Origin: an uncultured Gammaproteobacteria bacterium
Lineage (GTDB): Bacteria; Patescibacteriota; Microgenomatia; Levybacterales; GWA1-39-11
NCBI GenBank assembly: GCA_964448725.1
Contig: CAYVAJ010000004.1
Location: 17,535 to 81,534, forward strand
Length of the DNA: 64,000 nt
Direction of reading: 5' to 3'
The position numbers were made by a program, and so were the translations under genes. Below are positions 15,801 through 62,077 of the stretch, in pieces. The stretch's first letter is position 1; each line of letters opens with the position of its first letter. The notes below the pieces were generated by a model that saw nothing but the letters and a program-made list of their open reading frames with translations, did not search any database and was not told where the DNA came from.

Positions 15801-18800
15801 GAAACAGATGTTGATATAGAAGCAACGACTGACACTGGTGGAGGGTATAACCTTGCTTGGATGTGGCCTAATGAATGGGTAGAGTATACAGTAAATGTAA
15901 CAGAAACAAGTACATATACCGTTGGAGCACGAGTCGCCTCCAATGGAGGTGGGGGAGTGTTTCATATAGAAGTTGATGGGCAAGATGTAACCGGTTCAAT
16001 GACTGTCCCGAGCACAGGAGGAAATCAGGTTTGGCAAACAGTTGAAAAAACCGGAATTCAATTAAGTGCTGGACAGCATATTATCCGATTGTCAATGGAT
16101 AGCAGTGGAGCACAGCAAGGAATTGCCAATTTTAATTATCTAGAATTTACTCAAGACACATCTACTAGTCCAGTACCATCCACCTCACAGGAATATACAT
16201 TATCCGGATCAGTATATGTCGATGTAAATAGAAATGGGGTAAAAGATACTGATGAATTAGGCCATAACGGAGCTGAGGTTACGGTATCAGGCGGATTATC
16301 AGCTAGTACCAATGCATCCGGGCTTTATACATTAACAGTTCCTGCTGCAGTATATACTGTTACTATTACCATACCTGATGGATATGAGGGAACAACTACA
16401 AATCCATTGTCTATTTCAGTCTCTGCAAATACTTCGGCGAACTTTGGTATTGCCCCAACAGCTACTGGAGGTAGAACAAATTCTGTCTTCACAGTGAATG
16501 CAGCTAAGACAGGTACTGAATTGAATGGACAACCTTTTCAAGTTGTTGGTATTCGTGTATCAAATGCACTTATTAATGACGCTAAAACACAACAACTCAT
16601 AGATAACCTTGATGTATTCAGAACTTATGGTATTAATACCGTTAGCGTTTTCTTCCAAGGTTCACGATTTGGTGACATCAAAGGCTATAGAGAAGATACA
16701 ACACTAAATCCTACCTACGCTGCTCGGATGGCACGAATTATTGAAGAAGCTGATAAACGTAAGATGGTCGTTCTAGTGGGAGTTTTGTATTATGGCGATG
16801 CAACCTTTGCAAAATGGGATAGTTGGGGACAAACTGAGGCAAACAGTGCAGTTGCTAATACTGTTCAGTGGCTCAAAGATAATAATTATCGCAATGTATT
16901 TATCGATGTTGATAACGAACAAATGTCACCGTTTGATAGTCAAAAACTCATTGCAGCTGGAAAAGCAGTTGATGCATCCTATGTAATTGGTTCTGGTGGC
17001 AAAATAACGCCATCAAATGCTGACCTATCTTTGCACCAAGGAGGCAAAAATATAACCGGTAAACCATATATTGAATCTGAAGGAACACCGCAAGGATATT
17101 GGGGTGCATATAGCAGACAGTCAGGAGACACACAATATCGAAATATTGGCATTTATACGAGTGATTTAAAATCTGCATGGTTGTCTGAAACTTCTAGTTT
17201 ATTGAATCAAGGAAAAGGATATATGGGTGCATCAACCTGGTTACAGGCCGACCTTCCAGAGGGACCAAATCACATACCTGGTGGAAATGGGACATCAGCA
17301 GATCCTGGGATTAAATTCTGGTTAGAGCATGTAAAGAGTTTGGTTGGGCCGTATGAGCCATCAGGTATTGGAGAGGAGACTACTCCAACCCCAACTCCAA
17401 GTGCTATTACCCCTACTCCTACTCAACCACCAACTGGGGGAACAGGGGCATTTTTGGAAAACAACGGTCAGCTAGTTATTGAGGTAGAGGATTATAATGA
17501 TATTTTTCCATCTACATTTAATAACTATACACAAACACACAATTGGGAAAAGAAAACAAATATTCCAGACTATAGTGGAAGCGGATTTATGCATAATATA
17601 CCAGATGAGCGAGGAGAGGATGGAGTAGGTCCTAATTCACCTCGAGGAAAAGGTGGACCTGAAATGCGGTATCCAATCAAGATATCAACTCCTGGAACAT
17701 ACAATGTCTGGGTAAGAGGGTATACTACGGGAGGAGAGTCAAACGGAGTACATATCGGGGTTGATGGGGTAATGACAGGTACAGAAGCTGGAGCTTCAAA
17801 TATGTCAGGGTTTAGACCTAAAGAATCGTGGATTTGGGAAAGTGCAAGAAAAGAAGGATATACGCTCCCTGCAACTCTCAATCTTACTGCTGGTTATCAT
17901 ACACTTAATGTCTGGGGAAGAGATGATGGATTTAGAATGGATAAAATAGTATTACGAATAGGAAGTGGTGTCCCATCAGGGACAGGACCTGCCCAGAGTG
18001 CGCGAGAAGCCATACCAACTCCAATAATTACACCAACTCCCACACCTGTGGTTACCACAACTCCCACACCTACTCCAAGTGTTCAAGCACCATTTACGGG
18101 AACTCCTATTTCGTTACCTGGAACAATCCAGGTAGAAGACTTTGATAATGGTGGTGCAAATGTTGCGTACTTTGATACGTCAGCAGGTAATAACGGTGGA
18201 GTATATCGAGATACAGATGTTGATCTTCAAGCTACTACTGATACTGGAGGAGGATATGGTCTTGAGTTTACAAGATCTGGAGAATGGTTAGAGTACACTG
18301 TAGATGTTGCTGAGGGCGGTACTTATGATATTGGTGTACGTGTTGCCTCTAAAGTAGTTGGTGGTGCATTCCATATAGAGATTGATGGGCAAGATGTAAC
18401 TGGGCCGATGTATGTACCAAATACTGGTGATTGGCAAACATGGACAACAATCGAGAAAACAGGTATACAGCTTACTGCAGGAGAACATGTAGTCAGATTA
18501 TCATTAGATAGCAGTGGTGAGCAGGCAGCTATTGGAAATATCAACTATATTACATTCACGAAAGTTGTCACAATTCCTACCTATACACTCTCAGGTACTG
18601 TATATGTAGATGCAAATAATAATGGTATACAAGATACAGATGAGGCTGATTATGCAAATGCAATTATTGAACTTTATGAAGGACCTGAAGCGACAGATAT
18701 TCCTTACCACACAGCAGAAACCAATACAGCCGGAGCGTATACTTTCAACACATTAAATCAAGGAGTATACACAGTATCACTTCTAATTCCTGATGGATAC

Positions 18801-21800
18801 AGTGTTACTACAGCTATCCGTCAAGTAGTCTCGCTTACAGCAGATACTATAGTGAATTTTGGTATCGCATCCACACAAACACCTACTATTACTCCTACTC
18901 CTGTAAGTCCTTCAAATCTTCTAAAGAATGGAGGTCTTGAGAGTAGCACTACTGTTTGGGGGTTATATGGGGGTGCAAGTATAATGCAAGGTACTTCACA
19001 TGGTGGTAGTAAAGCTATTCGTGTAGGTAATGCAAGTGGTGGGGGTGAATCAGGTGCCGAGCAAGCTGTTGCTGCACAGCCAGGAAAGACATACTCACTT
19101 ACTGCCTGGGGTATGATGAGTAATTCAGCTCAGAGTGATAAAGGCGCTGTGGGTATTAAATTTAAGAACAGTGCAGGAGATGTTCTTGGTAATGAAACAT
19201 CCATCTTTATTCCTGAGACTGATTGGACTCAGAAACAAGTGTCTGCAATTGCACCTGCTAACACGGCAAGCGTTGTAACTTATGTATATAAAGAAGTGGG
19301 AGATAATACTTTCTTATACATTGATGACTTTACGCTTACAGAAAGCGGAGAAGTTACTACTCCAACCCCAACATTGACAAATACTCCGACACCTACTGTT
19401 GCACAAAATACACCGACTCCAACGCCAGTACAACTATCTGATTTAGTAGTTAGTGATATAACATGGAGTCCATCTAATGCTACTGTAGGACAAAATGTTA
19501 CTTTTGGTGCTACCTTAAGAAATATTGGATCAGCTGCAACTCCTGATGCAACTGCCCATGGAGTAGCGTTTTATGTGAATGGAGTAAAAGTATCTTGGTC
19601 GATAAATCATAATGCGTCTATTGCACCAGGTGACTCAGTAACAGTCACTGCTAATGGTGGTCCTGAAGGTTCACGATTCTGGACAGCGACAGCAGGTACA
19701 CATGAAATTGAGGCAGTAGTTGATGAGCCTGGCAGGATTACGGAAAGTAATGAGGAAAATAATACTGCAAGCAACCAATTTACCATTGTTGCTGCTCCTA
19801 CGGTTACTCCGACTCCGACATCTGTTCCTACTTACACAGTAGATGGAACTGTATATGTAGATACAAATAAAAATGGTGTGCAAGATACAGATGAGGCAGG
19901 GTATGCAGATGCAGTTGTTATGATATCAACTAACCCTGAAACAGCAGGTATAAGCGATGAAAATGGGCGTTTTATTCTTACTGGAATAAATCAAGGAGTA
20001 TACACAGTTACTCTTTCCGCACCTAATGGGTATACTATCACGACTTCCAATCCAATTGAAGCAGTTGTAACTGCAAATACTACAATCAATTTTGGAATCG
20101 GTCTTATTCCAACTCCAACCCCTACAGCTCCTGTTATAACGCCTACATTAACAACAACTCCTACCCCTACTGCAACAGCTACTCCGATTCCAACTGTTAC
20201 TCCTCTTCCTACGGGTACTCAGTCAGTAACATACTCGGTCCCATGGACAAGTGAAGATGTACAAGAAACAAATACATCATTTACGGTAAATGACACCACT
20301 CTTCGAATTGGTGGATGCGGACAGACAGCTTGTTATACTGGTCTTCGGTTTACGAATATTAACCTGCCTAAAGGTTCTATAATTAATTCTGCATATGTAG
20401 AGTACAATGCAGCCCAAAGTAACTCACTTGCAAATGTAGCGGTAGAGATTGCAGGACATGATTCGGATAATAGTTCGCTTTTCTCTTCATCCAATAAACC
20501 TTCACAAAGAACACTTACAGCTGCTAAAGTGACTCCTCAAACTGATACAGTAGTTGCTGCTAATCAGTGGTATCGTTTAGGTAATATCTCATCAATAGTG
20601 CAAGAAGTCATAGATAGAGACAATTGGCAAACTGGAAATAGTATTTCACTTATTATTCGTGCTACATCTCCAACAGAGCAAGATACAGGAATTCTTGCAC
20701 ATAGTTACGATGGAAATTCTGAGAGAGCACCACGCTTAGTAATTATATATAGTAGTCCGATAGGCGGAGAAGAACCAACAAATACTCCTGTCCCTATTAC
20801 AGAGCCTACTGAAGCACCTATTCCAACGTATATTCTTTCAGGTACTGTCTATGTAGATACCAATAAAAACGGCGTAAAAGATATAGAAGAATCAGGTCAA
20901 AGTAATATAACAGTATCTCTGTCAAATGGAGCATCGGTTTCAACTGATGCACAAGGTAGATATCAATTTACTGATTTAATCCAAGAACTCTATACTGTAA
21001 CTGCAACAGTACCAAATGGATATACATTGACTACTCAGTCATCAATCCCTGTATCACTTATAGCTGATACAAGTGTACACTTTGGAATGGTACAAGTACC
21101 AATAGCCACGGTAACTGCAACATCTGCACCAACCCCTACCCCTATTCCATGTTCACTTGTATCAGCCAAATGGCAAACAACCAATAATCAAATAGATGAA
21201 GGTGAGATTGTAGGACTTGAAGTTATAACCTCAGGAAACTGTGTTGGAGAAGAGCTGGAGTTTGAGGTACGAGAGGACGATGGAATTATGGGGTCTGATG
21301 CAACAAATATTATTCCAGCAACAGTACCAATAATCGGAAATAACGCACAGACTTCATGGATAGTTGAATGGCAGCAGGATTGTATGGGATTTGCACTTTG
21401 CCAAACTCCGGAATATTACTATATTGTTAGAATTGTGGGAACCACAACTGAGATACGCTCAACAAATCCAACACTTAAAGTGCAGCGTACCAACAAAGCA
21501 CGGTTTGTGACTATTCCTCATGTGGATGTGACTCAAGATACTGTGAAAATTACATGGAAGACAAGCCATGATATGTCATCACAGATTAGCTATGGATTAT
21601 CTGCAGAATCCCTTGTAAGTACAGATGAGATAAATACCAATATACGAGCAGCTGATCATGCTATTACAATTGACAACTTACTTCCTTGTACTGCGTATCG
21701 GTATCAGGTACGTTCACGGGAAATAACTGGTGATATGGTAGAGAGCCCTTTTGCTCAATTTATAACAAAAGGTTGTGAAGGAAACTCGTCAGTACTTGCA

Positions 21801-22514
21801 TTATCTACCACTGATGTTGATCCTGCTAGTGGAGGAGTTGTAGAGTTAATAGATGAGGAAACAGATAAGGGTATATTGCTCCAGGTGCCTGCTGGGTTTA
21901 GCAGTCGGCCAGCACAATTCCAAATGAAAAAATTAGAACAATCTCCTGTATTATCAGAATTATCTGTACCATCAGGAAGGTCACTCGTTGGATCACACAT
22001 TTATAACTTAGCTGCACTAACAAATATTTCATCAAAATCAGCAACTTTTGAAGAACCGATCTTAGTTACGATAAATTATTTGCCATCTGAAGTATCTAAT
22101 CTTGCAACATTGGCTATGTATCGTAATAATGGACAGCAATGGACACAGTTAGAAAACTGTACACATAACCAAACAGAAGCTTCAATTTCCTGTAATACTA
22201 CTGCATTCTCGGTATTTGCTCTATTCTCTGAAACACCTGCTAGTGAGACAAATCAACCGCCTAAAAACCAAAACTCAAATTCATCTGGAGGAAATTCTTC
22301 AACTGGGGGATCAGGAGGTTCTTCAGGAGACTCTTCAGGTGGTTCATCAAGTACTGCAAACGGACCAGATTTGAATAAAGATGGAAAAATAAATATTTTC
22401 GACCTTAGTATATTGTTAAGCCAATGGAATAGATCAGGGAGCGGTGACTTGAATAATGATGGAAAAGTGAACATCTTTGATCTCTCACAGCTTCTTGTAA
22501 AATGGACTCGGTAG
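12894..22514 (+). CDS. Giant (3206 aa) secreted or surface multidomain carbohydrate-binding/active protein with a C-terminal dockerin
   Basis: Single uninterrupted frame. Features read from the translation: N-terminal TM helix; parallel beta-helix-like region (NNHIHHNDG...); three CBM6/CBM35-like repeats; four Cna-B/SdrD-like modules (Y.LSG.VYVD.N.NG..DTDE); a GH-A (TIM-barrel glycosidase)-like segment; a CARDB-like module; an FN3-like module; Pro/Thr linkers; a C-terminal double dockerin repeat. Confidence 0.8.
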   Translation: MHSRKKKFKDYWEFAELQDKKVRIAIAISALGLLLFIAFALTFPFYDNLFTRLFPKSPSLADVTAPTVVQSNTATVSSGSDVSISWGSPTSNGNFLIAVLAAQSGDEALSISQAPQGWTLVSDTINEEVRQWVYAYANAPEQSGEVKFTLSSGVKSSLVVAEYKDVAKENAIETQNSLVGNNDSPTGSVDPNTDYNLVIAAVSSVVTSSESASFNNATNDFSLVGQTSTTGDAVNIATALFSSFVANQEPVNNSVTIGSGTQWIHTMVAIKPVVPIPTYTPIPSKEPEPTPETEPEFLLQGLDPENTQQSGLRSLALESTQISGTTYYVDCQNGNDSNNGRSEGAAWKSLNKINNATLNPGDGILLKRDCSWTGTLDAAWNGTAQEPITIGAYGEGVLPTIKYDGSKGGGPAVKVSGSYVVIDSLKATLTNPNRSSDCTLADGQKQHFGYYQGFNLSGHHLTLQNSEATGNSLGVFTTDSSHHNKILNNHIHHNDGLWRIGPIPPGSMGGMGMNLHGDDHEVAHNFFEKNDANCDPPDHTHRGYSAAIELYNASRAHVHHNKMVGHRKHFEMGKNSDEISDDNIFAYNLIVSNLANAKGPNIHGAGNKFGPVKRTTVVNNTIYLVGSGNTQALNCGCTDGATIRNNIFWAEEKVAFFNGTYTESNNIYWDSDGNPNAQNLSLHATSKKTNPQFVKAAVNDGDFRLKAGSPAIDAGISVGYDLDVEGVSVPQGSKVDIGAIEYTGQVVTTPTPTASTVTPTPGVQEPFSGSRISLPGTIQAEDFDNGGATVAYVDNDTGNNGNIYRQTDVDIEATTDTGGGYNLGWTRPGEWVEYSVNVSYSGSYTIGTRVASNGGGGVFHIEVDGTDVTGPMTVPNTGGNQIWQTVEKTGVQLTAGQHIVRLSFDNNGATQGVGNFNYMTFTFDPGPQTPYTGTPISLPGIIQAEDFDNGGVMAAYFDQDAGNKGNVYRETDVDIEATTDTGGGYNLAWMWPNEWVEYTVNVTETSTYTVGARVASNGGGGVFHIEVDGQDVTGSMTVPSTGGNQVWQTVEKTGIQLSAGQHIIRLSMDSSGAQQGIANFNYLEFTQDTSTSPVPSTSQEYTLSGSVYVDVNRNGVKDTDELGHNGAEVTVSGGLSASTNASGLYTLTVPAAVYTVTITIPDGYEGTTTNPLSISVSANTSANFGIAPTATGGRTNSVFTVNAAKTGTELNGQPFQVVGIRVSNALINDAKTQQLIDNLDVFRTYGINTVSVFFQGSRFGDIKGYREDTTLNPTYAARMARIIEEADKRKMVVLVGVLYYGDATFAKWDSWGQTEANSAVANTVQWLKDNNYRNVFIDVDNEQMSPFDSQKLIAAGKAVDASYVIGSGGKITPSNADLSLHQGGKNITGKPYIESEGTPQGYWGAYSRQSGDTQYRNIGIYTSDLKSAWLSETSSLLNQGKGYMGASTWLQADLPEGPNHIPGGNGTSADPGIKFWLEHVKSLVGPYEPSGIGEETTPTPTPSAITPTPTQPPTGGTGAFLENNGQLVIEVEDYNDIFPSTFNNYTQTHNWEKKTNIPDYSGSGFMHNIPDERGEDGVGPNSPRGKGGPEMRYPIKISTPGTYNVWVRGYTTGGESNGVHIGVDGVMTGTEAGASNMSGFRPKESWIWESARKEGYTLPATLNLTAGYHTLNVWGRDDGFRMDKIVLRIGSGVPSGTGPAQSAREAIPTPIITPTPTPVVTTTPTPTPSVQAPFTGTPISLPGTIQVEDFDNGGANVAYFDTSAGNNGGVYRDTDVDLQATTDTGGGYGLEFTRSGEWLEYTVDVAEGGTYDIGVRVASKVVGGAFHIEIDGQDVTGPMYVPNTGDWQTWTTIEKTGIQLTAGEHVVRLSLDSSGEQAAIGNINYITFTKVVTIPTYTLSGTVYVDANNNGIQDTDEADYANAIIELYEGPEATDIPYHTAETNTAGAYTFNTLNQGVYTVSLLIPDGYSVTTAIRQVVSLTADTIVNFGIASTQTPTITPTPVSPSNLLKNGGLESSTTVWGLYGGASIMQGTSHGGSKAIRVGNASGGGESGAEQAVAAQPGKTYSLTAWGMMSNSAQSDKGAVGIKFKNSAGDVLGNETSIFIPETDWTQKQVSAIAPANTASVVTYVYKEVGDNTFLYIDDFTLTESGEVTTPTPTLTNTPTPTVAQNTPTPTPVQLSDLVVSDITWSPSNATVGQNVTFGATLRNIGSAATPDATAHGVAFYVNGVKVSWSINHNASIAPGDSVTVTANGGPEGSRFWTATAGTHEIEAVVDEPGRITESNEENNTASNQFTIVAAPTVTPTPTSVPTYTVDGTVYVDTNKNGVQDTDEAGYADAVVMISTNPETAGISDENGRFILTGINQGVYTVTLSAPNGYTITTSNPIEAVVTANTTINFGIGLIPTPTPTAPVITPTLTTTPTPTATATPIPTVTPLPTGTQSVTYSVPWTSEDVQETNTSFTVNDTTLRIGGCGQTACYTGLRFTNINLPKGSIINSAYVEYNAAQSNSLANVAVEIAGHDSDNSSLFSSSNKPSQRTLTAAKVTPQTDTVVAANQWYRLGNISSIVQEVIDRDNWQTGNSISLIIRATSPTEQDTGILAHSYDGNSERAPRLVIIYSSPIGGEEPTNTPVPITEPTEAPIPTYILSGTVYVDTNKNGVKDIEESGQSNITVSLSNGASVSTDAQGRYQFTDLIQELYTVTATVPNGYTLTTQSSIPVSLIADTSVHFGMVQVPIATVTATSAPTPTPIPCSLVSAKWQTTNNQIDEGEIVGLEVITSGNCVGEELEFEVREDDGIMGSDATNIIPATVPIIGNNAQTSWIVEWQQDCMGFALCQTPEYYYIVRIVGTTTEIRSTNPTLKVQRTNKARFVTIPHVDVTQDTVKITWKTSHDMSSQISYGLSAESLVSTDEINTNIRAADHAITIDNLLPCTAYRYQVRSREITGDMVESPFAQFITKGCEGNSSVLALSTTDVDPASGGVVELIDEETDKGILLQVPAGFSSRPAQFQMKKLEQSPVLSELSVPSGRSLVGSHIYNLAALTNISSKSATFEEPILVTINYLPSEVSNLATLAMYRNNGQQWTQLENCTHNQTEASISCNTTAFSVFALFSETPASETNQPPKNQNSNSSGGNSSTGGSGGSSGDSSGGSSSTANGPDLNKDGKINIFDLSILLSQWNRSGSGDLNNDGKVNIFDLSQLLVKWTR
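15207..15662 (+). repeat. CBM6/CBM35-like module, copy 1 (within the giant ORF)
   Basis: ISLPGTIQAEDFDNGG...GGGYNLGWTRPGEWVEYSVNV...GGGGVFHIEVDG...NFNYMTFTF. The copies are about 60-70% identical. Confidence 0.5.
15699..16152 (+). repeat. CBM6/CBM35-like module, copy 2
   Basis: ISLPGIIQAEDFDNGG...GGGYNLAWMWPNEWVEYTVNV...GGGGVFHIEVDG...NFNYLEFT. Confidence 0.5.
18108..18563 (+). repeat. CBM6/CBM35-like module, copy 3
   Basis: ISLPGTIQVEDFDNGG...GGGYGLEFTRSGEWLEYTVDV...GGAFHIEIDG...NINYITFTK. Confidence 0.5.
22368..22511 (+). other. Dockerin-like module (two Ca-binding repeats) at the C-terminus of the giant protein
   Basis: DLNKDGKINIFDLSILLSQW...DLNNDGKVNIFDLSQLLVKW matches the dockerin type-I duplicated D.N.DG.VN..D pattern. 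Confidence 0.6.
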
Positions 22515-29650: not shown

Positions 29651-30059
29651 AAGATATTTATTACTTATTATTTATTATTTAAACCTAAAAAGATTTTTTA
29701 TTATACGTAATACTTAGTTATTTATTATTTATTACTTATTATTGATTATTTATTATTGATGTTTAGTTTTTAAGCCTATTCGATATATGTTATTTAATAT
29801 TTTACCGTGAACTACGAACAGTGAACCGTGAACGCTATTTATTACTTATTATTGATAATCAATACTAACTCCCTAACTCCATATACTTTATAACTTTATG
29901 AACTTTACAAACTTTATAACTAAAACGACTTTATGAACTTTACAAACCTTAAGAACTTTACAAACCCTAATCCCTAGACTCTAACCCTATACCTTACGTC
30001 TTATACCCATCTCATCTCATTCTTGCAAACTACGCATGTTTCACGTATAATTACCTCTT
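29651..30059. repeat. AT-rich intergenic region with short tandem/dispersed motifs (ATTACTTATTATTGAT x2, GTGAAC x4, GAACTTTACAAAC x3)
   Basis: Direct reading. Exact 16-mers at 29731 and 29841. GTGAACTACGAACAGTGAACCGTGAAC at 29806-29834. AACTTTATGAACTTTACAAAC repeats at 29905-29975. Confidence 0.6.
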
Positions 30060-36903: not shown

Positions 36904-37000
36904 TTCTCATTGATGCACAGGTTAAAGCATACAAATTAGGGAGAGGAAAAAATAGAGTAATAAAAGAGTGAGAATAAATAATTATAAGAAAAAATTCCAA

Positions 37001-37127
37001 GAAAAAAGCACCTTGGGGTAATAGAGAATAGATAACCCAAGTGACTTTTTTCTGCTGCTTATGCAGCGAAGCTCCATAGGCGTATCTTCCTCTTCACATC
37101 AAACGTGTTTGACCTTACGGTGCTTTA
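37001..37127. repeat. Copy 1 of a two-copy ~120-nt structured element (candidate small ncRNA / MITE-like repeat)
   Basis: Shares with 41185-41301 the outer helix AAGCACC...GGTGCTT, the internal hairpin GCTGC-TTAT-GCAGC (CCTGC-TCAT-GCAGG in copy 2, compensatory), the first hairpin CTTGGG.../...CCCAAG, and the conserved CCATAGGC and CCTTACGGTGCTT boxes. A U-run follows the hairpin on both strands. Confidence 0.5.
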
Positions 37128-37140
37128 TAGTATTGAGCGG

Positions 37141-37332
37141 TTAGTTATCTGAGTCATGTGTGTTTCCATGCACGGTATTCGCGACTAGCAGCCACGTTGC
37201 AACGATGAAAAACACAATGACAAGGACAAACGCCCACTGACCAATACTTGCAAACCATCCCATTAACCCTATCCAAAACAGGGTAAGGAGGATTCCGCGT
37301 CTCAGATCACGCCGTTCCGGAATGTATCGCAT
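37141..37332 (-). CDS. Hypothetical small membrane protein (GC-richer than surroundings)
   Basis: 63 aa with two TM helices. Confidence 0.35.
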   Translation of the reverse strand: MRYIPERRDLRRGILLTLFWIGLMGWFASIGQWAFVLVIVFFIVATWLLVANTVHGNTHDSDN

Positions 37333-37524
37333 GGTGTCCCTCCTTGTTCTTTTGCGAGATATCTACCTGCTTAATAAAGATAATGAGTTGATACGTACGA
37401 AGACTGATTTCGCACGCATCTTTCTCATAACCTTTTAAGTGATACTATTTAAAGTGCGAAATTCAGTATTTATATATGCAGAAAATAGTGTATCTATATA
37501 CAGTATAGCATAGTGAATAGAATA

Positions 37525-37549
37525 GGCGCCGTGTACTGCACGGCGCCTG
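37525..37549 (-). terminator. GC-rich hairpin terminator downstream of the 37567..38154 gene
   Basis: GGCGCCGTG-TACT-GCACGGCGCC is a perfect 9-bp stem, 18 nt beyond the minus-strand stop. A T-rich tract follows on the minus strand. Confidence 0.5.
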
Positions 37550-37566
37550 AAAATTTTGCTCAGTAG

Positions 37567-38154
37567 TTAGCTAATACGTGCTCTGTGAATCATTGTTACT
37601 GTGATGACACCACGTTCACTCGTTAGCTCATCGAGCAACTCAAGATTTAGTCGATGTTGTTTGCACACACCGACTTTAACTTGACCATTGTCGGGTTCTA
37701 ACATGGGATAGGTATAGGCTGCACCGTATCCGAACATTTCTACAATCCGCTCACCGGCTTCTTTGCACTGAACATGTGCTGAGAGATTGATGCGAAGTTC
37801 AGTTGAACCTCCGCAGACAAAACACCCGGGTGTTGTATCGATACCAATGCCTCGTGAATGGAAATATTCTCCTCCTTGTTCAGGACGTATGTCAGGACGT
37901 CCATGACACGGTATGCCTCTCCGAGGATGGATTGATAACTTAGGATAGTATCCTCCCCGAAATCCAATAGCAGACTGCGTTGTCCCATCTGTGAGTATTG
38001 CGTAGTCACCGTCACATTCACCGCAAATTCGCAGTTCTGTTCCCAGACTTGCAACTGGAGAGAATGAAGACCTAAAACCGCAATAAGGACAACCGAATTG
38101 TTCAGCCTCCTTAATGCTGATAGCAACAGGGATATAGCGTACCGTATTATTCAC
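37567..38154 (-). CDS. Cys-rich hypothetical protein (zinc-ribbon-like CPYCG...CGEC, PGCFVCGG)
   Basis: 195-aa ORF in a visibly more G+C-rich segment. Multiple CxxC pairs. Confidence 0.4.
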   Translation of the reverse strand: MNNTVRYIPVAISIKEAEQFGCPYCGFRSSFSPVASLGTELRICGECDGDYAILTDGTTQSAIGFRGGYYPKLSIHPRRGIPCHGRPDIRPEQGGEYFHSRGIGIDTTPGCFVCGGSTELRINLSAHVQCKEAGERIVEMFGYGAAYTYPMLEPDNGQVKVGVCKQHRLNLELLDELTSERGVITVTMIHRARIS

Positions 38155-38337
38155 GGGATTCTCCTCATGGTTAGGAACCTATGCCACCAGTTGATGGCGC
38201 ATTATGTACCATAACAATACACAAAGCGCCATCAACTAAATGATTAAATTTCATGATCTGTAAATGTACAATAACAATCGAGTATGAGTGTACTAAGTAG
38301 AATTTGAGTGAATTATACCAAAACGGGTGCCAAGGCA

Positions 38338-38973
38338 TTATCGCATATTTTCTACTGTCCGAAGAAGTATAACTGCAGCTTTTCTTACAACCCCTCGCGG
38401 GCTCTTTTCATACATACGTGCTAGTATATATATCTCATCAGCTAAATTGGAATCAATTTCAACAATATTTTGTAAACCTTTTAAAATACGTGCTGCTTGC
38501 TTTTCTCCCCATACCTCTAGAATTCGTTTGAGTAATGGTAATGTTTCGTGCGCTGCGTTGATGCTAGATTTTGCATAGTTGCATATCACAACTACTGAAT
38601 TATCACGGACAATTGTACTGGTATCAGATAATGCCATGCGCTGAAATTGAGAGAGAAGGGGTTTTACTTGATCAGGAATCATATGCGCGATAAGTCCAAT
38701 CGCATGTGTTACTTCCCAACGTACACGAGTATTTTTGTGCATAAGTAATGATAATAATTGGTTGGTGTAAGGAACAATTAATGCAGGATTTGATTCTGCA
38801 ACTTTTGTAAATATTTCAGCACAATCACCTATAATGGCAACATCAGAGGAGGAGAGGTGTTTTGCGATATCTTGAAGGGATGCAGGGTGGGCAAGACAAT
38901 ATTCGGCAACTTTTCTATTAGATTCTTCTGTCTTATCACCTATTTCGGATGATAATTGACTAATAATATCCAT
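38338..38973 (-). CDS. HEAT/ARM-like repeat protein (possibly DNA alkylation repair enzyme-like)
   Basis: 211-aa all-helical pattern with repeating ~35-aa hydrophobic periodicity. Weak resemblance to AlkD-like HEAT proteins. Confidence 0.3.
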   Translation of the reverse strand: MDIISQLSSEIGDKTEESNRKVAEYCLAHPASLQDIAKHLSSSDVAIIGDCAEIFTKVAESNPALIVPYTNQLLSLLMHKNTRVRWEVTHAIGLIAHMIPDQVKPLLSQFQRMALSDTSTIVRDNSVVVICNYAKSSINAAHETLPLLKRILEVWGEKQAARILKGLQNIVEIDSNLADEIYILARMYEKSPRGVVRKAAVILLRTVENMR

Positions 38974-38974
38974 G

Positions 38975-39394
38975 TTACTTTTCTCTTTGTTTCATATATT
39001 GAAATGAAGACTTGATTAATTTCTTGAGGACAGCAGGATCGACATCAGAAAGACGTTTTATATAAACACAGCCTACGCTTGTTTTATGTTTGCCAAGATT
39101 TTTAAATAAATCATGGTTGTTTTCATTTCCTGCCATGATATATAGTGTTAAATTCTGCTTTCGTGGAGAAAATCCAATAAGCGGCCAGTCACCTTCCTGA
39201 GCGCTTCGTTCTGATTTATAATGATATTTTCCAAATCCAACAATACTTGTTCCCCACATTACTGCCTTTTCTCCTGTAATTTCTTGAAACATTTCCAGAA
39301 GCGTGAAGCTATCGCGTTGTTTTTCTTCTGGTTCTACTTTTTCTAGAAACTCAGTAACACTTTCAGTTGTCGCCTTTGTCTTTAACTCTGCCAT
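38975..39394 (-). CDS. DUF1801 (YdhG-like) domain protein
   Basis: 139 aa. VTEFLEKVEPEEKQRDSFTLLEMFQEITGEKAVMWGTSIVGFGKYHYK follows the DUF1801 pattern. Confidence 0.45.
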   Translation of the reverse strand: MAELKTKATTESVTEFLEKVEPEEKQRDSFTLLEMFQEITGEKAVMWGTSIVGFGKYHYKSERSAQEGDWPLIGFSPRKQNLTLYIMAGNENNHDLFKNLGKHKTSVGCVYIKRLSDVDPAVLKKLIKSSFQYMKQREK

Positions 39395-39462
39395 ATCGTA
39401 ATGTTAATTATATAAAAAAAGAGAACAGAAAATATAAGATGTTTCTATGATTTGTATATATA

Positions 39463-40158
39463 TTATTTTCTTGCAATTACAAAACCAGAGACAGCTCTAA
39501 GCGGAAGATCTCGCTTTATTATTGTACCAATATAATCAGGTGGAATAGTAAAAGACTCACTGAAGCCAACATGAGTAGCATCAGTTGCTAATGCTTTTGT
39601 GGTCGTATGTTGTTTCATGCCATTATTAATTTTCCAAGGTATACGTTCAGGCGGAAAAATAGGCCATAATAAAATTCCGTTAGGACGTAGTACTCTAAGT
39701 GATTCAGATAGAAAATGATCAGAGTCAGTAATAAATCTATTTGCCCATACACTTGTAATCCCATCAAAACTATTATCATGAAATGGAAAGTCTTCATTCA
39801 TATCAGATAGCACAATATCTATCTCTTTTCCTTTTTCAGGAATAAGATTGAGTGATGGAAGACTTAAATCAGTGGATGTTACAGAATATCCAGAATCTAA
39901 AAGAGCTTTAGAAATAAGTCCAGTTCCAGCACCTATATCTAGAATGTTGGGTTTATTCCCATTTTCATCTACACTTGGACCATATTTTTTCATAAGATCA
40001 GCTACTTTTTGACCAAGTTTCTCTCTTCCATACTTTAAAACGTATGATTCGTACTCATGTGGATCAACATCATGCGCATAATTTCGGCTTAATGCCACAT
40101 TCTTTGCAACACGATATGTATCTCGTATAGCAGTAAATGATTTGATTCTTTCAGACAT
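39463..40158 (-). CDS. Class I SAM-dependent methyltransferase
   Basis: 231 aa. Motif I ILDIGAGTGLISKALL. Motif post-I ...VTSTDLS. Confidence 0.65.
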   Translation of the reverse strand: MSERIKSFTAIRDTYRVAKNVALSRNYAHDVDPHEYESYVLKYGREKLGQKVADLMKKYGPSVDENGNKPNILDIGAGTGLISKALLDSGYSVTSTDLSLPSLNLIPEKGKEIDIVLSDMNEDFPFHDNSFDGITSVWANRFITDSDHFLSESLRVLRPNGILLWPIFPPERIPWKINNGMKQHTTTKALATDATHVGFSESFTIPPDYIGTIIKRDLPLRAVSGFVIARK

Positions 40159-40265
40159 GGCTGGAATTATACCATTTTAAGTGAAATGTGGTTATACTGG
40201 GAAAAGTAAAAAGAGTGCGCTTTCGATCAATCAGGCAGTTTTCCAACTGGCGCACCCAACCTTAA

Positions 40266-40595
40266 TTATCGGAGATACAAGTTAACCTTCTGGAGTACCT
40301 TCATCCCAAGTTCTCTTTTCTCCTCAGGTAGAACTGAGAATAGTCCTGCTGCCATTCTCAGGAATGACTGAGGATCCTCGAGTCCTTTGTGATGTTGATC
40401 ACTGAGGATTGCAACCGATACTAGACAAAGAAGAATTTCCTCAAGTTCCTCTCTATCTTCATTCCTCAAATCAAAAGAAGAATGATGTGCTGCATTCGTG
40501 ACGAATTCTACAGGATTTATCTCGTCCACGTTTATCCTCCTAACAGTACTATCCAATAGTTTTGAGAGTATATTGAAAGAGAGTGAAAGTGTCAA
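40266..40595 (-). CDS. Hypothetical protein (GC-richer segment)
   Basis: 109-aa ORF. No recognisable motifs. Confidence 0.3.
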   Translation of the reverse strand: MTLSLSFNILSKLLDSTVRRINVDEINPVEFVTNAAHHSSFDLRNEDREELEEILLCLVSVAILSDQHHKGLEDPQSFLRMAAGLFSVLPEEKRELGMKVLQKVNLYLR

Positions 40596-40657
40596 GCTAT
40601 AAATCTATTTTTTAATTCACAATCTTTCTATCAGAGAACAGAGTAGTCTAAATAAAA

Positions 40658-40681
40658 TGGCGCTGAGGGATTCCCCAGCGC
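40658..40681 (-). terminator. Hairpin terminator downstream of 40693..41079
   Basis: GGCGCTG-AGGGATTCCC-CAGCGCC stem-loop immediately after the stop. ATTTTATTT follows on the minus strand. Confidence 0.45.
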
Positions 40682-40692
40682 CCTGACGTTCT

Positions 40693-41079
40693 CTACTGCG
40701 AGCTACGAATATATCCGTACAAACGGTACGGATATCCGTTGCCGACATTAAGGCCTGACTGAATGTGGACTAAATTTAGTCCACTATCTTCGTAATACAC
40801 CTGCAGATATGCTTCCAATTCAGCAGCACTGTTAGGGGCGAATCCCTTTGTTTTAGCAGCTGACATTGAGCGTTTATTCTTATCATAGTCCCATTGAGCG
40901 AGACGGTCGGAGTAGTCATATTTTGCTTCTACGACCGTTTCCATAAAGTTTTCCCGCTTGAGACTATAACCTGGTGCTATGAAAATTGTCTGTGGCCTAT
41001 TAAAGACAGTCCGCGAGAAGTGTGGGTTAAGCAAGTTAGTATCCAGTGACTTTAACTTGTCAGTTTCCACGTGGATCAC
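40693..41079 (-). CDS. Hypothetical protein
   Basis: 128-aa ORF with a coding-like composition. A terminator hairpin lies downstream. Copy 2 of the structured element lies upstream. Confidence 0.35.
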   Translation of the reverse strand: MIHVETDKLKSLDTNLLNPHFSRTVFNRPQTIFIAPGYSLKRENFMETVVEAKYDYSDRLAQWDYDKNKRSMSAAKTKGFAPNSAAELEAYLQVYYEDSGLNLVHIQSGLNVGNGYPYRLYGYIRSSQ

Positions 41080-41184
41080 ACAATCCTCCTTTTAGCGTAC
41101 GAACGACAATAGAAAGAATTATACTATGATAAAAAAAGAAAGTCCATACTATAAGTTTATTATTTAACAATTAAATTAACTCAC

Positions 41185-41301
41185 GAAAAAAGCACCTTGG
41201 GGTATATGAGAGGATATATCCTAAGTCACTTTTTTCGTCCTGCTCATGCAGGAGTAGTGCCATAGGCAAATTTTTCTCTATTGTTACCTTACGGTGCTTA
41301 T
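41185..41301. repeat. Copy 2 of the two-copy ~120-nt structured element (candidate ncRNA / MITE-like repeat)
   Basis: See copy 1. The same box order is present with compensatory changes in two helices. Confidence 0.5.
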
Positions 41302-41311
41302 GTATTGCAGC

Positions 41312-41863
41312 TTATGTACCTTGGTACCAGTCGATCTCTGAGCCGTTCCAGTGTCCTACAAAGAATAGACCACTAGGAGCGCAATCCCAAAGCATACAGC
41401 CTACCGCGAGATGGTCATCAACCACTGTGAACTTATAGTCCTTAGCCACAACGCTTTGAGCGTCATATAGAGCTACAGGCTCACCAGGGATAATACCACT
41501 TCCGCAGAGACAACAACGGATACTCTCACGTTTCAGCTCTTCCAGGCTGCAATCTGGGCAGAGACGATCAGCTTTTTTCGGATTTGGCAGTAGTGTCCTT
41601 CCGTATATCCGAATTTTGAATGCTCCTGGTCCTCGGTGTCCGCATTTGTATCTTCGCGTCTTTCTTAGACCCAAGAAACCAATCTTGGATGGAATTTCCA
41701 TCCAATCCACAATACTCGGATCCTGATCCATCACGATTGGTTCTCTTTCAGAACCGCCCTTCGCAAAGACAGTCAAGCCATCAAGCGTTGGGTCTTCAGT
41801 GACAAGTACTTGCTCATCACGCCTATTCGCCATGTCACACTCCTTAATATGTATGGAAAACAA
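41312..41863 (-). CDS. Cys-rich hypothetical protein
   Basis: 183-aa ORF with a good RBS (TTAAGGAGTGTGACATG). CxxC pairs: CPDC, CCLCG. Preceded by a TATAAT-like box and the shared 37-nt upstream motif. Confidence 0.4.
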   Translation of the reverse strand: MFSIHIKECDMANRRDEQVLVTEDPTLDGLTVFAKGGSEREPIVMDQDPSIVDWMEIPSKIGFLGLRKTRRYKCGHRGPGAFKIRIYGRTLLPNPKKADRLCPDCSLEELKRESIRCCLCGSGIIPGEPVALYDAQSVVAKDYKFTVVDDHLAVGCMLWDCAPSGLFFVGHWNGSEIDWYQGT

Positions 41864-41921
41864 ACAAACGCTACTAATGGAGGATTATATCAGATTGTAT
41901 TCTATATGAAACAATAAATTA

Positions 41922-41958
41922 CACCTTCCAGGTGGTTTAGGTTCACACCTCTTCTTTA
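41922..41958 (-). promoter_or_regulatory. Shared 37-nt upstream motif containing the palindrome CACCTGGAAGGTG (copy 1, upstream of 41312..41863)
   Basis: CACCTTCCAGGTGGTTTAGGTTCACACCTCTTCTTTA is identical to 45646-45682. It lies just upstream of a -35/-10-like region of the downstream minus-strand gene. Confidence 0.45.
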
Positions 41959-44460: not shown

Positions 44461-45609
44461 TTACTGAGAATTAAGTACTTGGACAGGATAATCTGAAGAA
44501 TTACATCCAGCAGCGATTAATCCAGCACCTTCTTGAATAGCGTGACTATTACCAAATCCAATAAATAAGTCATATCCCTCATTAACTCTTGTGACAATTT
44601 GATCAAGTATGTATCTATCTCTATTGTCACTTAACTTTGCAGAAAGATAATTCAACATCCCCTTAGGATTATCAGGATTATTAACAAATGGATTGACTAA
44701 AGGTTGATAATGCTTCTCTAAATCATATTCAGAGACATATAGAGGATTACCTTGTTCATCAACTCCATTTTGAACTAATAGTTGAATTCCTTCTTCACCT
44801 GTAACTTCATTTTTTATGAACTTTGAATTGTCTTTCAAATGAGTATTTAATTGAGGGAGCATTTTATCAATATACTGCTGAATTCTTGATCTACCTTCTG
44901 ATGTGTTGAATGATCCTAGTTTCTTTATTTCTTCAAGTTCACTCTGAGCAAAATCTTTTTCCCAATCTGTATAGACTAGGGATAAATTTAATAATAAATC
45001 AGCAACTTCTTGTTGAGTAAAGTGTTGCTCATGACGTAATTCTTTGTCACGTAAGGCAGAGTGCAAATTTCTGAAGGCAAAGTTTAATGCAATCGTAAGG
45101 TTGGGGATGCCTTGCTCCTTCATAAACGTAACTGTTTCTTCGTAGGGAATATCAGGAGACATTACATCTATTCCAGCTTCTTTTGCATACCAAGTAATTG
45201 CACCCATTTCACCACCTCGTTGAACTGCTTCCTCAAAAGTAGCATATTCGTTAGTAATGATACCTGGTTTGCTACCTTCAATTAAAACTAATCTTTTTTG
45301 AGAATCAGTGGTTGCACCATTAAACTCATCAAAAGCAGTTTTTAACCCAGTAGTTTGAGTATGATTTTGTTCCGAAGTAAGGTTATGGGGATGAATTGTA
45401 CCTGAATAGTGAATTATCCGCTCATTGGGAGATTTATATCTAAAAACCATCGGCAAATCTTTACCCTCCATTGCTTTATAAACTCTATCTATTGCAAGAT
45501 CGCCCATTTTAAGCATACCTTCTTGAGCTTTTTCTGGGGAAAGTTGTTTAGTATCCATTTCTTTGGATAAGTCAATTCCTAATTCTGCTGCAGAAGGATT
45601 ATTATCCAT
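44461..45609 (-). CDS. Hypothetical protein (382 aa)
   Basis: Long ORF with no recognisable motif. Preceded by the shared 37-nt motif at 45646-45682. Confidence 0.4.
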   Translation of the reverse strand: MDNNPSAAELGIDLSKEMDTKQLSPEKAQEGMLKMGDLAIDRVYKAMEGKDLPMVFRYKSPNERIIHYSGTIHPHNLTSEQNHTQTTGLKTAFDEFNGATTDSQKRLVLIEGSKPGIITNEYATFEEAVQRGGEMGAITWYAKEAGIDVMSPDIPYEETVTFMKEQGIPNLTIALNFAFRNLHSALRDKELRHEQHFTQQEVADLLLNLSLVYTDWEKDFAQSELEEIKKLGSFNTSEGRSRIQQYIDKMLPQLNTHLKDNSKFIKNEVTGEEGIQLLVQNGVDEQGNPLYVSEYDLEKHYQPLVNPFVNNPDNPKGMLNYLSAKLSDNRDRYILDQIVTRVNEGYDLFIGFGNSHAIQEGAGLIAAGCNSSDYPVQVLNSQ

Positions 45610-45645
45610 AGTTCTAGTATATCAGAACAAAAGGGTTAATTATTC

Positions 45646-45682
45646 CACCTTCCAGGTGGTTTAGGTTCACACCTCTTCTTTA
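45646..45682 (-). promoter_or_regulatory. Shared 37-nt upstream motif (copy 2, upstream of 44461..45609)
   Basis: Identical 37-mer to 41922-41958. Confidence 0.45.
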
Positions 45683-45722
45683 GATGGTTTTTAGTAACAT
45701 TTGAATGGAGTATGTAGAAGTG

Positions 45723-45795
45723 TGAGCCGACTGGGACTCGAACCCAGAACCAAAAGCTTAAAAGGCTTTTGCTCTACCGATTGAGCTATCGGCCC
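45723..45795 (-). tRNA. tRNA-Lys (anticodon TTT), no encoded CCA
   Basis: Manual cloverleaf on the reverse strand: acceptor GGGCCGA/TCGGCTC, D-arm GCTC-AATCGGTA-GAGC, anticodon arm AAAGC-CTTTTAA-GCTTT (TTT), T-arm CTGGG-TTCGAGT-CCCAG, discriminator A. Confidence 0.8.
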
Positions 45796-49929: not shown

Positions 49930-50340
49930 ATGGCTCGAAGAAAAACTACCACAGTACGTTTAGAATGGATGGAAGATCCGGACATTCAAATACAGATAAA
50001 TCATCTGATTCATACACTTGAGTTAACACACCTGCGTGCTGATAGAATTTTGTGTTACAGAACTACTGGATCATCTGCCCGTGCGTATGCCCGTATATGG
50101 TCCTTTCCAAAAATTTTCCAGCATGCACTGCACTTAGAACCTGCATATGTGATTGAGGTGATATCAGAAAAATATGATCGTCTACCCGACGATAAAAAAT
50201 TGCAAGTATTAATTCATGAGCTGCTTCACATTCCTAAAAATTTTTCAGGAAGTCTTCTCCCACATAAATTTGGTAAAACTACGATTGACAGAGAAGTCGC
50301 ACGGTTATACAAAGAGTTTAGGGAAAGGAGTAAAAAATAG
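49930..50340 (+). CDS. Putative small zinc metallopeptidase (HExxH; SprT/DUF45-like)
   Basis: 136 aa with IHELLHIPKN. Confidence 0.3.
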   Translation: MARRKTTTVRLEWMEDPDIQIQINHLIHTLELTHLRADRILCYRTTGSSARAYARIWSFPKIFQHALHLEPAYVIEVISEKYDRLPDDKKLQVLIHELLHIPKNFSGSLLPHKFGKTTIDREVARLYKEFRERSKK

Positions 50341-50398
50341 TTCACTGTTCACAGTTCACGGTATAATGGTTAATAAGCTATTGCTGTGAACTTGCATT

Positions 50399-58480: not shown

Positions 58481-59134
58481 TTACTGAGCAGTGCGGAAGC
58501 GTCGAACTAACCCGACGCATATTCCTTGTATCCGCAGGGACTTAGGGTAAATAGGTTCCATAGCAGCGTTTGCGGGTTTTAAGACTACTTGTTCTCCTTC
58601 TTTATAAAACCGCTTTAATGTCGCAAGTCCTTCATCAACAAGTGCTACCACAATATCACCATTTTTTGCAACTTCTGTTTTCTCTATTACGACATAATCT
58701 CCGTCTAAAATCCCATCTTCGATCATAGAGCTTCCTTTCACTTCAAGCACATAGGATGGCTTGCGGCCACTGATCATACTTGATGCTACATCAAATGTTG
58801 CTTCAGGGTCTGTGTGAGGCTCTAGAGGTCTTCCAGCTGCAATAAAACCCAGTAAAGGAAGTGACATTGTTGGACCGTTTGCTTTAGACATTGGCCCTAC
58901 AAGATTACCCAAAGATTCTTTCTGCAGGATTTTAAGCGTACGATTATTTCCTTCAACTTTTTGAATATACCCTTTATCAACCATAGATCGAATGAGAGCA
59001 TGGATAGTTGAGACACTGCGGCGATTGAGTGCATCTGCCATTTCCCGAAGTGTTGGAGAATAACCATGTTGTTCCTGGTATTGGATGAGGTAATTTAATA
59101 GTTCGCGTTCTTTTTTGTAGAGTACTGCTGGCAT
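58481..59134 (-). CDS. lexA: LexA repressor (S24 peptidase)
   Basis: 217 aa. N-terminal winged-helix region (LTxRExEVL-like PTLREMADALNRRSVSTIHALIRSM). C-terminal AAG cleavage site and VKGSSMIEDGILDGDYVVI...ATLKRF S24 motifs. Confidence 0.8.
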   Translation of the reverse strand: MPAVLYKKERELLNYLIQYQEQHGYSPTLREMADALNRRSVSTIHALIRSMVDKGYIQKVEGNNRTLKILQKESLGNLVGPMSKANGPTMSLPLLGFIAAGRPLEPHTDPEATFDVASSMISGRKPSYVLEVKGSSMIEDGILDGDYVVIEKTEVAKNGDIVVALVDEGLATLKRFYKEGEQVVLKPANAAMEPIYPKSLRIQGICVGLVRRFRTAQ

Positions 59135-61323: not shown

Positions 61324-61344
61324 ACCAAGGTCCGACCTTGGTCA
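61324..61344. repeat. REP-like perfect palindrome GACCAAGGTC-C-GACCTTGGTC (3' flank of the RAYT gene)
   Basis: Direct reading. The same palindrome family occurs at 62058-62077, 4154-4170, 6279-6297 and 6332-6352, with a degenerate copy at 61641-61655. Confidence 0.7.
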
Positions 61345-62057: not shown

Positions 62058-62077
62058 GACAAGGTCCGACCTTGGTC
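62058..62077. repeat. REP-like palindrome GACAAGGTCCGACCTTGGTC (5' flank of the RAYT gene)
   Basis: Direct reading. Followed by GGTCAAG as at the 61324 copy. Confidence 0.7.

Follow-up and report, generated by a model that had tools for sequence, protein, structure and literature searches.

Results

Two copies of a palindromic element on the minus strand

This analysis concerns a 64,000-nucleotide stretch of a Patescibacteria genome (assembly GCA_964448725.1, contig CAYVAJ010000004.1, positions 17,535 to 81,534; hereafter the window), and in particular two copies of a composite palindromic element that an earlier note, made from the letters alone, had proposed as a structured RNA or a miniature inverted-repeat transposable element (MITE). 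Copy 1 (36997-37127) and copy 2 (41181-41301) both lie on the minus strand, as do all the genes around them, and seven genes separate one from the other. Copy 1 follows a gene for a 63-aa predicted membrane protein (37141-37332, minus strand), whose stop codon lies 13 nt before the element. Copy 2 begins 12 nt past the stop codon of gene X (41312-41833, or to 41863 with a longer start; minus strand), which encodes a Cys-rich protein of 173 or 183 aa that belongs to no Pfam family. Between copy 2 and the next gene (40693-41079) lies a promoter-like TGGACT-17-TATAAT site (41118-41146, minus strand; a consensus match only), and that gene thus appears to have its own promoter downstream of the element. 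The GC content of the element segments is 0.41-0.44, compared with about 0.37 window-wide; the placement of each copy after a minus-strand gene in a GC-richer segment was therefore as the earlier note described it.

Both copies were recognized by a covariance model with E-values of the order of 1e-20, copy 1 at 36997-37125 on the minus strand (98 bits, E about 1e-19) and copy 2 at 41181-41299 on the minus strand (108 bits, E about 1e-21), and every motif on which the claim of two homologous copies had been based was present. Read along the minus strand, the general layout is 5' (A)AAGCACC-GUAAGGU, a variable stretch, GCCUAUGG(CAC), an apical hairpin, GAAAAAAGUGA-CUUAGG, a second variable stretch and ACCCCAAGGUGCUUUUUU-CNUGG 3'. 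Copy 1 has the order 5' (A)AAGCACC-GUAAGGU ... GCCUAUGG ... GCUGC-AUAA-GCAGC ... A-run ... CUUGGG...CCCCAAGGUGCUUUUUU-CUUGG 3', and copy 2 has the same layout with CCUGC-AUGA-GCAGG as its apical hairpin. In copy 1, the 5' terminal arm AAGCACC (37119-37125; GGTGCTT on the plus strand) pairs with GGUGCUU (37006-37012; AAGCACC on the plus strand), and this closing helix, which had been noted before, is invariant in 7/7 aligned copies of the family described below, with 7/7 pairs kept. The 3' terminal arm together with its U-run, GGUGCUUUUUU, occupies 37002-37012 on the minus strand and is the predicted intrinsic-termination point. In copy 2, sequence and alignment place the 5' terminal arm at 41293-41299 on the minus strand (plus-strand GGTGCTT), and sequence and folds place the 3' terminal arm with its U-run, again GGUGCUUUUUU, at 41186-41196 on the same strand (plus-strand AAGCACC at 41190-41196). 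The apical hairpins lie at 37054-37067 in copy 1 (GCTGC-TTAT-GCAGC on the plus strand) and, by sequence and alignment, at 41239-41252 in copy 2 (CCTGC-TCAT-GCAGG), and the plus-strand box CCATAGGC lies at 37074-37081 and 41260-41267, respectively.

Element boxes of 13-17 nt, which had been claimed as conserved between the copies, each occur exactly twice in the window, compared with an expectation of 0.2-0.7. T-runs follow the hairpins on both strands in both copies, as had also been noted, and fold z-scores of the two copies range from -3.3 to -4.6 on both strands. The claim that the internal hairpins differ only by compensatory changes held in part: the apical stems GCTGC/GCAGC and CCTGC/GCAGG differ by a true double change, but the CTTGGGG hairpin shows a one-sided change from CCCAAG to CCTAAG (G-C to G.T) together with a different apical extension. 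With filters off, the covariance model gave no third credible match in the window; a candidate third copy at position 63750 was coding sequence and hence not a copy of the element. The two copies (77% identical) are no closer to each other than they are to copies from other genomes (up to 84%).

A low-copy family in a clade of Patescibacteria

To scan 185,579 representative genomes plus metagenomes, two of the boxes were combined into an exact pattern. Full-length homologues were found in two Patescibacteria metagenome-assembled genomes (loci L001 and L003, one exact-pattern match each) and in two metagenome contigs (L006 and L007), while two other genome-scan matches (L002 and L004) were chance matches within genes. 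A fifth full-length relative, L009, was reached without the pattern, through a homologue of gene X that is 68% identical. Moreover, L003 contains a divergent second copy (L003b, 22 bits with the covariance model), which retains AAGCACC-N4-(A/G)GU ... ACC-N4-GGUGCUUUUUUCGUGG and the overall fold and differs everywhere else, and L025 carries an internally deleted copy. The full-length copies number eight in all, six of them outside the window. The alignment comprised seven sequences (copies 1 and 2, L001, L003, L006, L007 and L009). Identity among copies ranges from 77 to 90%, with L001 and L003 being the most similar pair at 90%, and the intergenic DNA beside the copies is without similarity. 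Because 4/7 aligned copies were ascertained by a pattern that fixes 21 invariant positions, conservation at those positions is partly so by construction; conservation of the 3' box, and L009 itself, are independent of the search pattern.

Further searches delimited the family. In viral contigs, both the box pattern and a termini-only pattern gave only chance matches inside coding sequence, and a protein-database search with peptides translated in reverse frames of the element gave 151 candidates, none of which scored. The covariance model detected no further copies in about 290 kb of related loci beyond those that had brought the loci in. In Rfam 15, searched at gathering and permissive thresholds (E up to 1-10) with the window and the other loci, no family matched any copy. 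The earlier note had suggested a covariance-model search and an Rfam scan; the former led to the divergent copy L003b, and the latter to no known family. Pairing-preserving changes are present among the further homologues. Taken together, these data place copies 1 and 2 in a previously uncatalogued, low-copy family whose members are composite palindromes of 105-125 bp and occur in a clade of Patescibacteria. The structured, non-coding character proposed for the element also stands, given that it is conserved and homologous and has no conserved reading frame.

Anatomy and folding

The element consists of two inverted, mutually similar imperfect palindromes of about 35 nt each, arranged around a spacer hairpin. 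Of these, CCGUAAGG...CCUAUGG forms the left palindrome and CUUAGGG...CCCCAAGG the right one. The inverted repeat AAGCACC/GGUGCUU encloses the doublet, and a U-run comes after it. Two incompatible folds are available to this sequence. In the first, a rod, the terminal helix P1 (AAGCACC/GGUGCUU) is followed by a 4x4 internal loop, GGU/ACC, GAGA/UCUC, CCUA..CAC/GUG..UAGG and the apical hairpin. In the second, there are three hairpins: H1 (CCGUA-A-GG/CC-UAUGG), which begins at the last CC of the 5' terminal arm AAGCACC; H2, the apical hairpin; and H3, a long terminator hairpin in which an A-run faces the U-run. The rod is the minimum free energy structure in 6/7 copies, with the three-hairpin fold 2-7 kcal/mol away, and RNAalifold returned the rod from one alignment and the three hairpins from another.

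Conservation of pairing was found for both folds. Among the seven aligned copies, 92.5% of cells are paired in the rod and 91.1% in the three-hairpin fold, whereas slid partners give 35-59%. Pairs changed on both sides number 6 and 4 in the two folds, compared with 2.4 and 1.4 in shuffled controls, a modest excess. The clearest changes are in the spacer hairpin H2, for which four different perfect stems exist in the family: GCUGC/GCAGC in copy 1, CCUGC/GCAGG in copy 2, L001, L003, L006 and L009, CCCGUC/GACGGG in L007, and AUUCG/CGAAU in L003b. Its sequence drifts, and its pairing is kept. An attempt to choose between the rod and the three hairpins by covariation was set aside, as both score alike on seven sequences. 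The argument that covariation points specifically to an RNA gene was accordingly not sustained. The pairing-preserving changes are real, but the element is a double palindrome with two incompatible folds that are equally supported, and the spacers of known extragenic palindromic repeats behave alike; pairing data do not separate selection on RNA from selection on DNA.

Both folds set a hairpin directly ahead of the U-run, so that no antiterminated state is available. By sequence and fold prediction, the features of an intrinsic terminator (a stable hairpin and a U-run after a stop codon) are present in all copies: H3 with its A- and U-runs has a predicted energy of -12 to -20 kcal/mol, and P1 is followed by U5-6. 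Owing to the internal A-run, a separate hairpin with a U-run is present on the antisense strand as well, which by sequence makes the element a bidirectional terminator. H1 contains invariant G.U pairs and has a predicted energy of -5.5 to -11 kcal/mol in the sense direction compared with 0 to -3.8 kcal/mol in antisense; together with the uniform orientation of the copies, this asymmetry indicates that selection acts on the sense strand, whether in the form of RNA or of top-strand DNA. Immediately past the U-run, a C(G/A/U)UGG(A) motif is kept in most copies, L003b included (36997-37001 and 41181-41185 in the window, 6242-6246 in L001, 1920-1924 and 6534-6538 in L003, and 10599-10603 in L009). 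This motif is puzzling, because sequence past the expected termination point should escape the constraint on an RNA terminator.

Every copy lies at the 3' end of an upstream gene

The start of every copy, L003b and L025 included, lies 4-22 nt past the stop codon of a gene in the same orientation, and each copy finishes with a U-run, the terminus being GGUGCUUUUUU. Several of the upstream proteins are small and Cys-rich, and no convincing homology was found among the upstream proteins of different copies. Accessory gene types found near the elements include DUF1801, VOC/PhnB-like and methyltransferase genes as well as genes for small Cys-rich proteins. The downstream genes are mutually unrelated, and the one that follows the L006 copy is convergent. 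In L001 and L009, the promoter of the downstream gene ddl (TTGnnn-17-TACTAT) lies past the element and is identical in related genomes. Given this position, the convergent gene in L006 and the promoters that come after the element, we conclude that the element belongs to the 3' end of the upstream gene and not to the leader of the downstream one.

Movement with accessory genes, empty sites and a central deletion

Comparison of related genomes revealed that the element is inserted together with accessory genes. In both L001 and L009, one or more accessory genes plus the element lie between fusA (elongation factor G) and ddl. The L001 insert consists of a gene for a 90-aa CxxC protein and the element, and the L009 insert consists of a gene for a 141-aa protein, a homologue of gene X and a single element. 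The same site is empty in seven related lineages (L011/L012, L013-L015, L018, L021, L022 and L023/L024), where the gap between fusA and ddl is 39-52 nt and the -35 box of ddl begins 1-2 nt after the fusA stop codon. The insertion point common to L001 and L009 lies between that stop codon and the -35 box. Measured by Ddl identity, a rough single-protein proxy for phylogeny, L001 is 72% identical to the empty-site lineage L011 and L009 is 69% identical to the empty-site lineage L013, whereas L001 and L009 are 62% identical to each other. Because each is closer to empty-site genomes, two gains are more parsimonious than many losses.

Gene X and the element also behave as a unit. Between the window and L009, a single blastn high-scoring segment pair (70% identity over 662 nt) covers the whole unit, starting with the open reading frame (ORF) and stopping where the element ends, and the genes around this unit are entirely different in the two genomes. 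L010 has a homologue of gene X (50% identity) that is followed by an ordinary terminator in place of the element. The L009 homologue itself (9944-10489) needs a frameshift at residue 145 (about 10380) for the alignment to be kept; it is either a pseudogene or the product of an assembly error in this Logan contig.

A deletion derivative was found in L025, a sister strain whose flanks are about 92% identical to the locus of copy 2, and which lacks 73 nt from the centre of that copy. One breakpoint falls within the loop of the left palindrome and the other within that of the right palindrome; what is left is AAGCACCGTAAGGTATCAAC|TATACCCCAAGGTGCTTTTTT, that is, the outer stem only, as a plain terminator hairpin. 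No target-site duplications were found in the flanks of eight copies, contrary to what the earlier note had expected of a MITE; the insertion junctions of L001 and L009 share at most 1 nt, and no partial elements were found at the left junctions of the inserted blocks.

Discussion

A probable terminator module resembling REP doublets

Our preferred reading, which we hold with no better than middling confidence, is that the element is a module resembling the repetitive extragenic palindromic (REP) sequences and their hairpin-forming doublets (REPINs), and that it provides accessory genes gained by horizontal transfer in this clade of Patescibacteria with a bidirectional intrinsic terminator. 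According to this model, the element would form the 3' end of the transcript of the accessory gene that precedes it, and as RNA it would fold either as three hairpins (H1, H2 and H3) or as one long rod. In either fold, a stable hairpin ahead of UUUUUU would act as an intrinsic terminator for the upstream gene, and the element would probably double as a 3' stabiliser. The internal A-run would stop antisense transcription as well, so that acquired genes would be insulated from their neighbours. The element would have arisen and spread at the DNA level, travelling in the company of accessory genes from one locus or genome to another, and excision of its centre would give a plain terminator hairpin, as described for REP doublets. 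Actual termination, the stabilising role and the mechanism of mobility are thus what we infer from these features.

Among known systems, REP doublets are the best fit, and the element resembles known extragenic palindromic repeats more than it does a new regulatory RNA. REP doublets (REPINs, also called bacterial interspersed mosaic elements) acting as terminators and stabilisers in 3' untranslated regions (3'-UTRs) are the closest system described (Bertels and Rainey, PMC3337134, PMC3116915). In REPs, the spacer hairpin is conserved in structure only, and A- and T-runs flank REP doublets, which suggests co-option for transcription attenuation; excision of the centre of a REPIN yields a long palindromic singlet (Bertels and Rainey, PMC3337134). 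For one E. coli representative, REP325, a role as terminator and stabiliser of the upstream mRNA was described (bioRxiv 10.64898/2026.03.23.713779). The present element likewise consists of two imperfect palindromes of one type in inverted orientation, which as a whole can form a long hairpin; its spacer is conserved only in the ability to form a hairpin, with four stems in the family; it is extragenic and lies just after genes, with A- and T-runs at its borders; L025 relates to copy 2 as a centre-excised singlet relates to a doublet; and a dual role as terminator and stabiliser of the upstream mRNA is proposed for both. A GTAG-type 5' motif, which is a feature of E. coli REPs, was not seen in the element.

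Several points weigh against this interpretation. The copy number is low, with two copies in 64 kb and one exact-pattern match per representative genome, in contrast to the tens to hundreds of copies that make up a REPIN population. No cognate enzyme can be assigned within the window, because its one gene for a Y1 transposase (Y1_Tnp; described below) is flanked by a different palindrome, whereas a REPIN is served by a single-copy REP-associated tyrosine transposase (RAYT) gene flanked by the same REP. Long invariant boxes are retained in old copies (77% identity between copies 1 and 2) even though the Ddl proteins of the genomes concerned share only about 62% identity, and such conservation of sequence across distant lineages looks more like purifying selection on a host function, for example protein binding, than like a selfish repeat. 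Furthermore, the element appears to move between lineages along with genes, whereas REPIN-RAYT systems are reported to be mostly vertically inherited (bioRxiv 10.1101/2022.05.22.493013). The central deletion in L025 can also be obtained by ordinary replication slippage across a palindrome. Finally, the conserved CGTGG past the U-run is not accounted for by termination, nor by any of the other readings offered here.

Comparison with two further kinds of element places the family more closely. Ordinary bidirectional terminators share with it an A-run, a G+C-containing stem and a U-run right after the stop codon, and the L025 derivative is simply such a hairpin; however, such terminators show no sequence conservation from one gene or genome to another, unrelated one, and they lack the element's additional conserved nested palindromes of about 70 nt. 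The Correia elements of Neisseria are palindromic MITEs of 100-150 bp with terminal inverted repeats that are co-transcribed with genes. The element resembles them in size, terminal inverted repeats, the long RNA hairpin, adjacency to genes and predicted effects on transcript ends, and differs in that its 7-bp inverted repeat is accompanied by no target-site duplications, its copy number is low, and its orientation is biased with respect to the upstream gene. A plain high-copy MITE is ruled out by the two copies in 64 kb, the single exact-pattern match per representative genome and the lack of target-site duplications. Like attC sites and riboswitches, which are considered below, MITEs fit less well than REPINs.

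Patescibacteria (the candidate phyla radiation, CPR) have tiny genomes, in which few non-coding elements or mobile-DNA mechanisms have been described. If genes acquired by horizontal transfer are capped by a conserved palindromic module, this would account for their insulation from essential neighbours, of which the fusA-ddl insertion is an example, and the element would serve as a sequence tag with which to find accessory genes in CPR metagenomes. As it stands, the finding is a new family within a familiar kind of element; were it instead a recombination site or a protein-bound RNA, it would point towards a new gene-mobility or regulatory system in a poorly understood group.

A dedicated structured RNA as an alternative

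The element could alternatively be a dedicated structured RNA, either a cis-acting 3'-UTR element or a small RNA processed from the 3'-UTR, an explanation that we regard as possible but rather unlikely. The boxes AAGCACCGUAAGGU, GCCUAUGGCAC and ACCCCAAGGUGC would then be bound by a Patescibacteria-specific protein or pair with target RNAs, and the terminator would merely be the 3' end of the molecule. The persistence of long invariant boxes between old copies beside dissimilar intergenic DNA fits such a role, as do the sense-strand specificity of H1 with its conserved G.U pairs, the uniform orientation relative to the upstream gene and the changes that preserve pairing. The copy number, too, is that of a gene and below that of a repeat. 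On the other hand, the conservation of the boxes is partly a matter of ascertainment (the 21 positions fixed in 4/7 aligned copies), and the inner boxes are dispensable in the sister strain L025 and replaced in L003b. No consistent promoter was present upstream of the copies in the flanks examined. Moreover, the element is absent from most related genomes and from the gene X homologue of L010, so that a dedicated RNA would be without a conserved genomic address.

A possible site of gene mobility

The homology between the window and L009 that begins at the ORF start and stops at the element end raises a further explanation, for which we see a small chance. The element would be the mobility site of an undescribed Patescibacteria gene-cassette system, in which a recombinase or HUH enzyme moves an ORF together with its palindrome. 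Such an enzyme would recognise AAGCACC-N4-GGU ... ACC-N4-GGUGCUU(U6)CGUGG on one strand. If true, this would explain why the homology block spans the ORF and the element, why insertion between fusA and ddl occurred more than once, and why sequence past the U-run is conserved.

A related explanation, to which we give a slim chance, likens the element to attC in a gene-cassette system other than an integron. The attC site (59-base element) is an imperfect palindrome of 57-141 bp located directly 3' of a promoterless accessory ORF, with conserved terminal inverted repeats, an unpaired spacer, a second short box and a variable centre. In the present element, the ORF and the site likewise behave as a unit, which would here be the mobile one. 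A putative recombinase would act on the folded single strand, in which the R and L boxes of attC would have their counterparts in the terminal 7-bp repeat, the 4x4 internal loop and the 3-bp box, with a variable centre between them. Consistent with this, L003b keeps exactly AAGCACC-N4-(A/G)GU ... ACC-N4-GGUGCUU and differs in the rest, conservation runs past the U-run (TTTTTTCGTGG) in a manner not explained by RNA termination, and the neighbours are typical accessory genes. L001 and L009 are also inserted at an identical point; this coincidence is explicable by selection, however, since at any other position either fusA or the ddl promoter would be disrupted. The remaining evidence speaks against an attC site. 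The termini AAGCACC ... GGTGCTT do not contain the RYYYAAC ... GTTRRRY core, which is absent on both strands of the element, and no tyrosine recombinase or integrase was found among the 29 ORFs, covering part of the window, that were scanned against Pfam. Nor is there an array with one site per cassette: seven genes lie between copies 1 and 2, two genes precede the single element in L009, no partial elements occur at left junctions, and the inserted units carry their own promoters.

Leader and coding-sequence explanations

It is very unlikely, and close to refuted, that the element is a riboswitch or attenuator leader, switching between a terminator and an antiterminator fold to regulate the gene that follows. 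The two mutually exclusive folds and the presence, in the window, of a co-oriented gene after each copy are what such a leader would have. However, both folds end in a hairpin and U-run and thus provide no 'on' state, the element adjoins the upstream stop codon, promoters lie between the element and the next gene, the downstream genes are unrelated or, in L006, convergent, and no Rfam family matched. Scarcely credible is a small protein-coding gene that starts at the conserved AUG in GCCUAUGG: a purine-rich, Shine-Dalgarno-like tract lies 5-8 nt upstream of the AUG, L001, L003 and L006 would yield MAQxLxAQAKK-like peptides, and a gene caller annotated a 35-aa ORF in L009, but the ORF varies from 6 to 35 aa with changes of frame and no conserved peptide (MAHARL* in L007, a different frame in copy 1), every frame on both strands has a stop in at least two of six copies examined, and the substitutions keep base pairing, not codons.

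Other features of the window

The Y1/HUH transposase gene mentioned above (61342-62010, minus strand; 222 aa) matches Pfam Y1_Tnp with E = 5.6e-11, and its best NCBIfam match is 'REP-associated tyrosine transposase' at 36 bits, below the cut-off of 80. It is flanked on both sides (61326-61340 and 62060-62074) by the perfect palindrome GACCAAGGT-CGG-ACCTTGGTC. By sequence, this is the classic layout of a RAYT gene with its REPs, here in a Patescibacteria genome. The palindrome, CAAGGTCGGACCTTG, has 12 matches in the window compared with 0.76 expected, and none in 25 loci from other genomes. One copy (4155-4169) lies singly and in frame inside a gatA-like amidase ORF (2922-4361), and two others (6280-6294 and 6335-6349) form an inverted in-frame doublet of about 80 nt (about 27 aa) in the MurT_C domain of murT (5958-7340). 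By analogy, these in-frame palindromes recall the in-frame palindromic elements of Rickettsia.

Other repeats were also observed. Two copies of a 41-nt direct repeat, ATTACACCTTCCAGGTGGTTTAGGTTCACACCTCTTCTTTA, which are 98% identical (41918-41958 and 45642-45682), lie upstream of minus-strand genes, namely gene X and a 382-aa ORF (44461-45609), and the second is 40 nt from tRNA-Lys (45722-45795). The 3.7 kb between them hold an SRAP peptidase gene, a DinB/IMS polymerase gene and the ORF at 44461-45609. Both copies could serve as a common operator or promoter site (LexA is encoded at 58481-59134), or they could mark the two ends of an island. A segment at 11163-11200, made up of the 3' end of tRNA-Asp (11105-11181) and the sequence that follows it, recurs 155 nt downstream at 11318-11355 (97%), in the manner of an attL/attR scar left by an integrated element that was small or has been excised. 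An intergenic pair of 42-nt inverted repeats (29785-29826 and 50340-50381), 20 kb apart, 81% complementary and rich in GTTCAC/GTGAAC, may be a shared operator.

Two perfect G+C-rich hairpins with GGCGC...GCGCC stems (37524-37548 and 40659-40682, minus strand) lie directly after minus-strand genes in the segment that also holds copies 1 and 2, and have only weak T-runs; these may be ordinary terminators or a second small palindrome family. Finally, a 3206-aa ORF (12894-22514, plus strand) with internal repeats of 300 nt and about 95 nt and with Thr/Pro-rich linkers probably encodes a giant surface protein.

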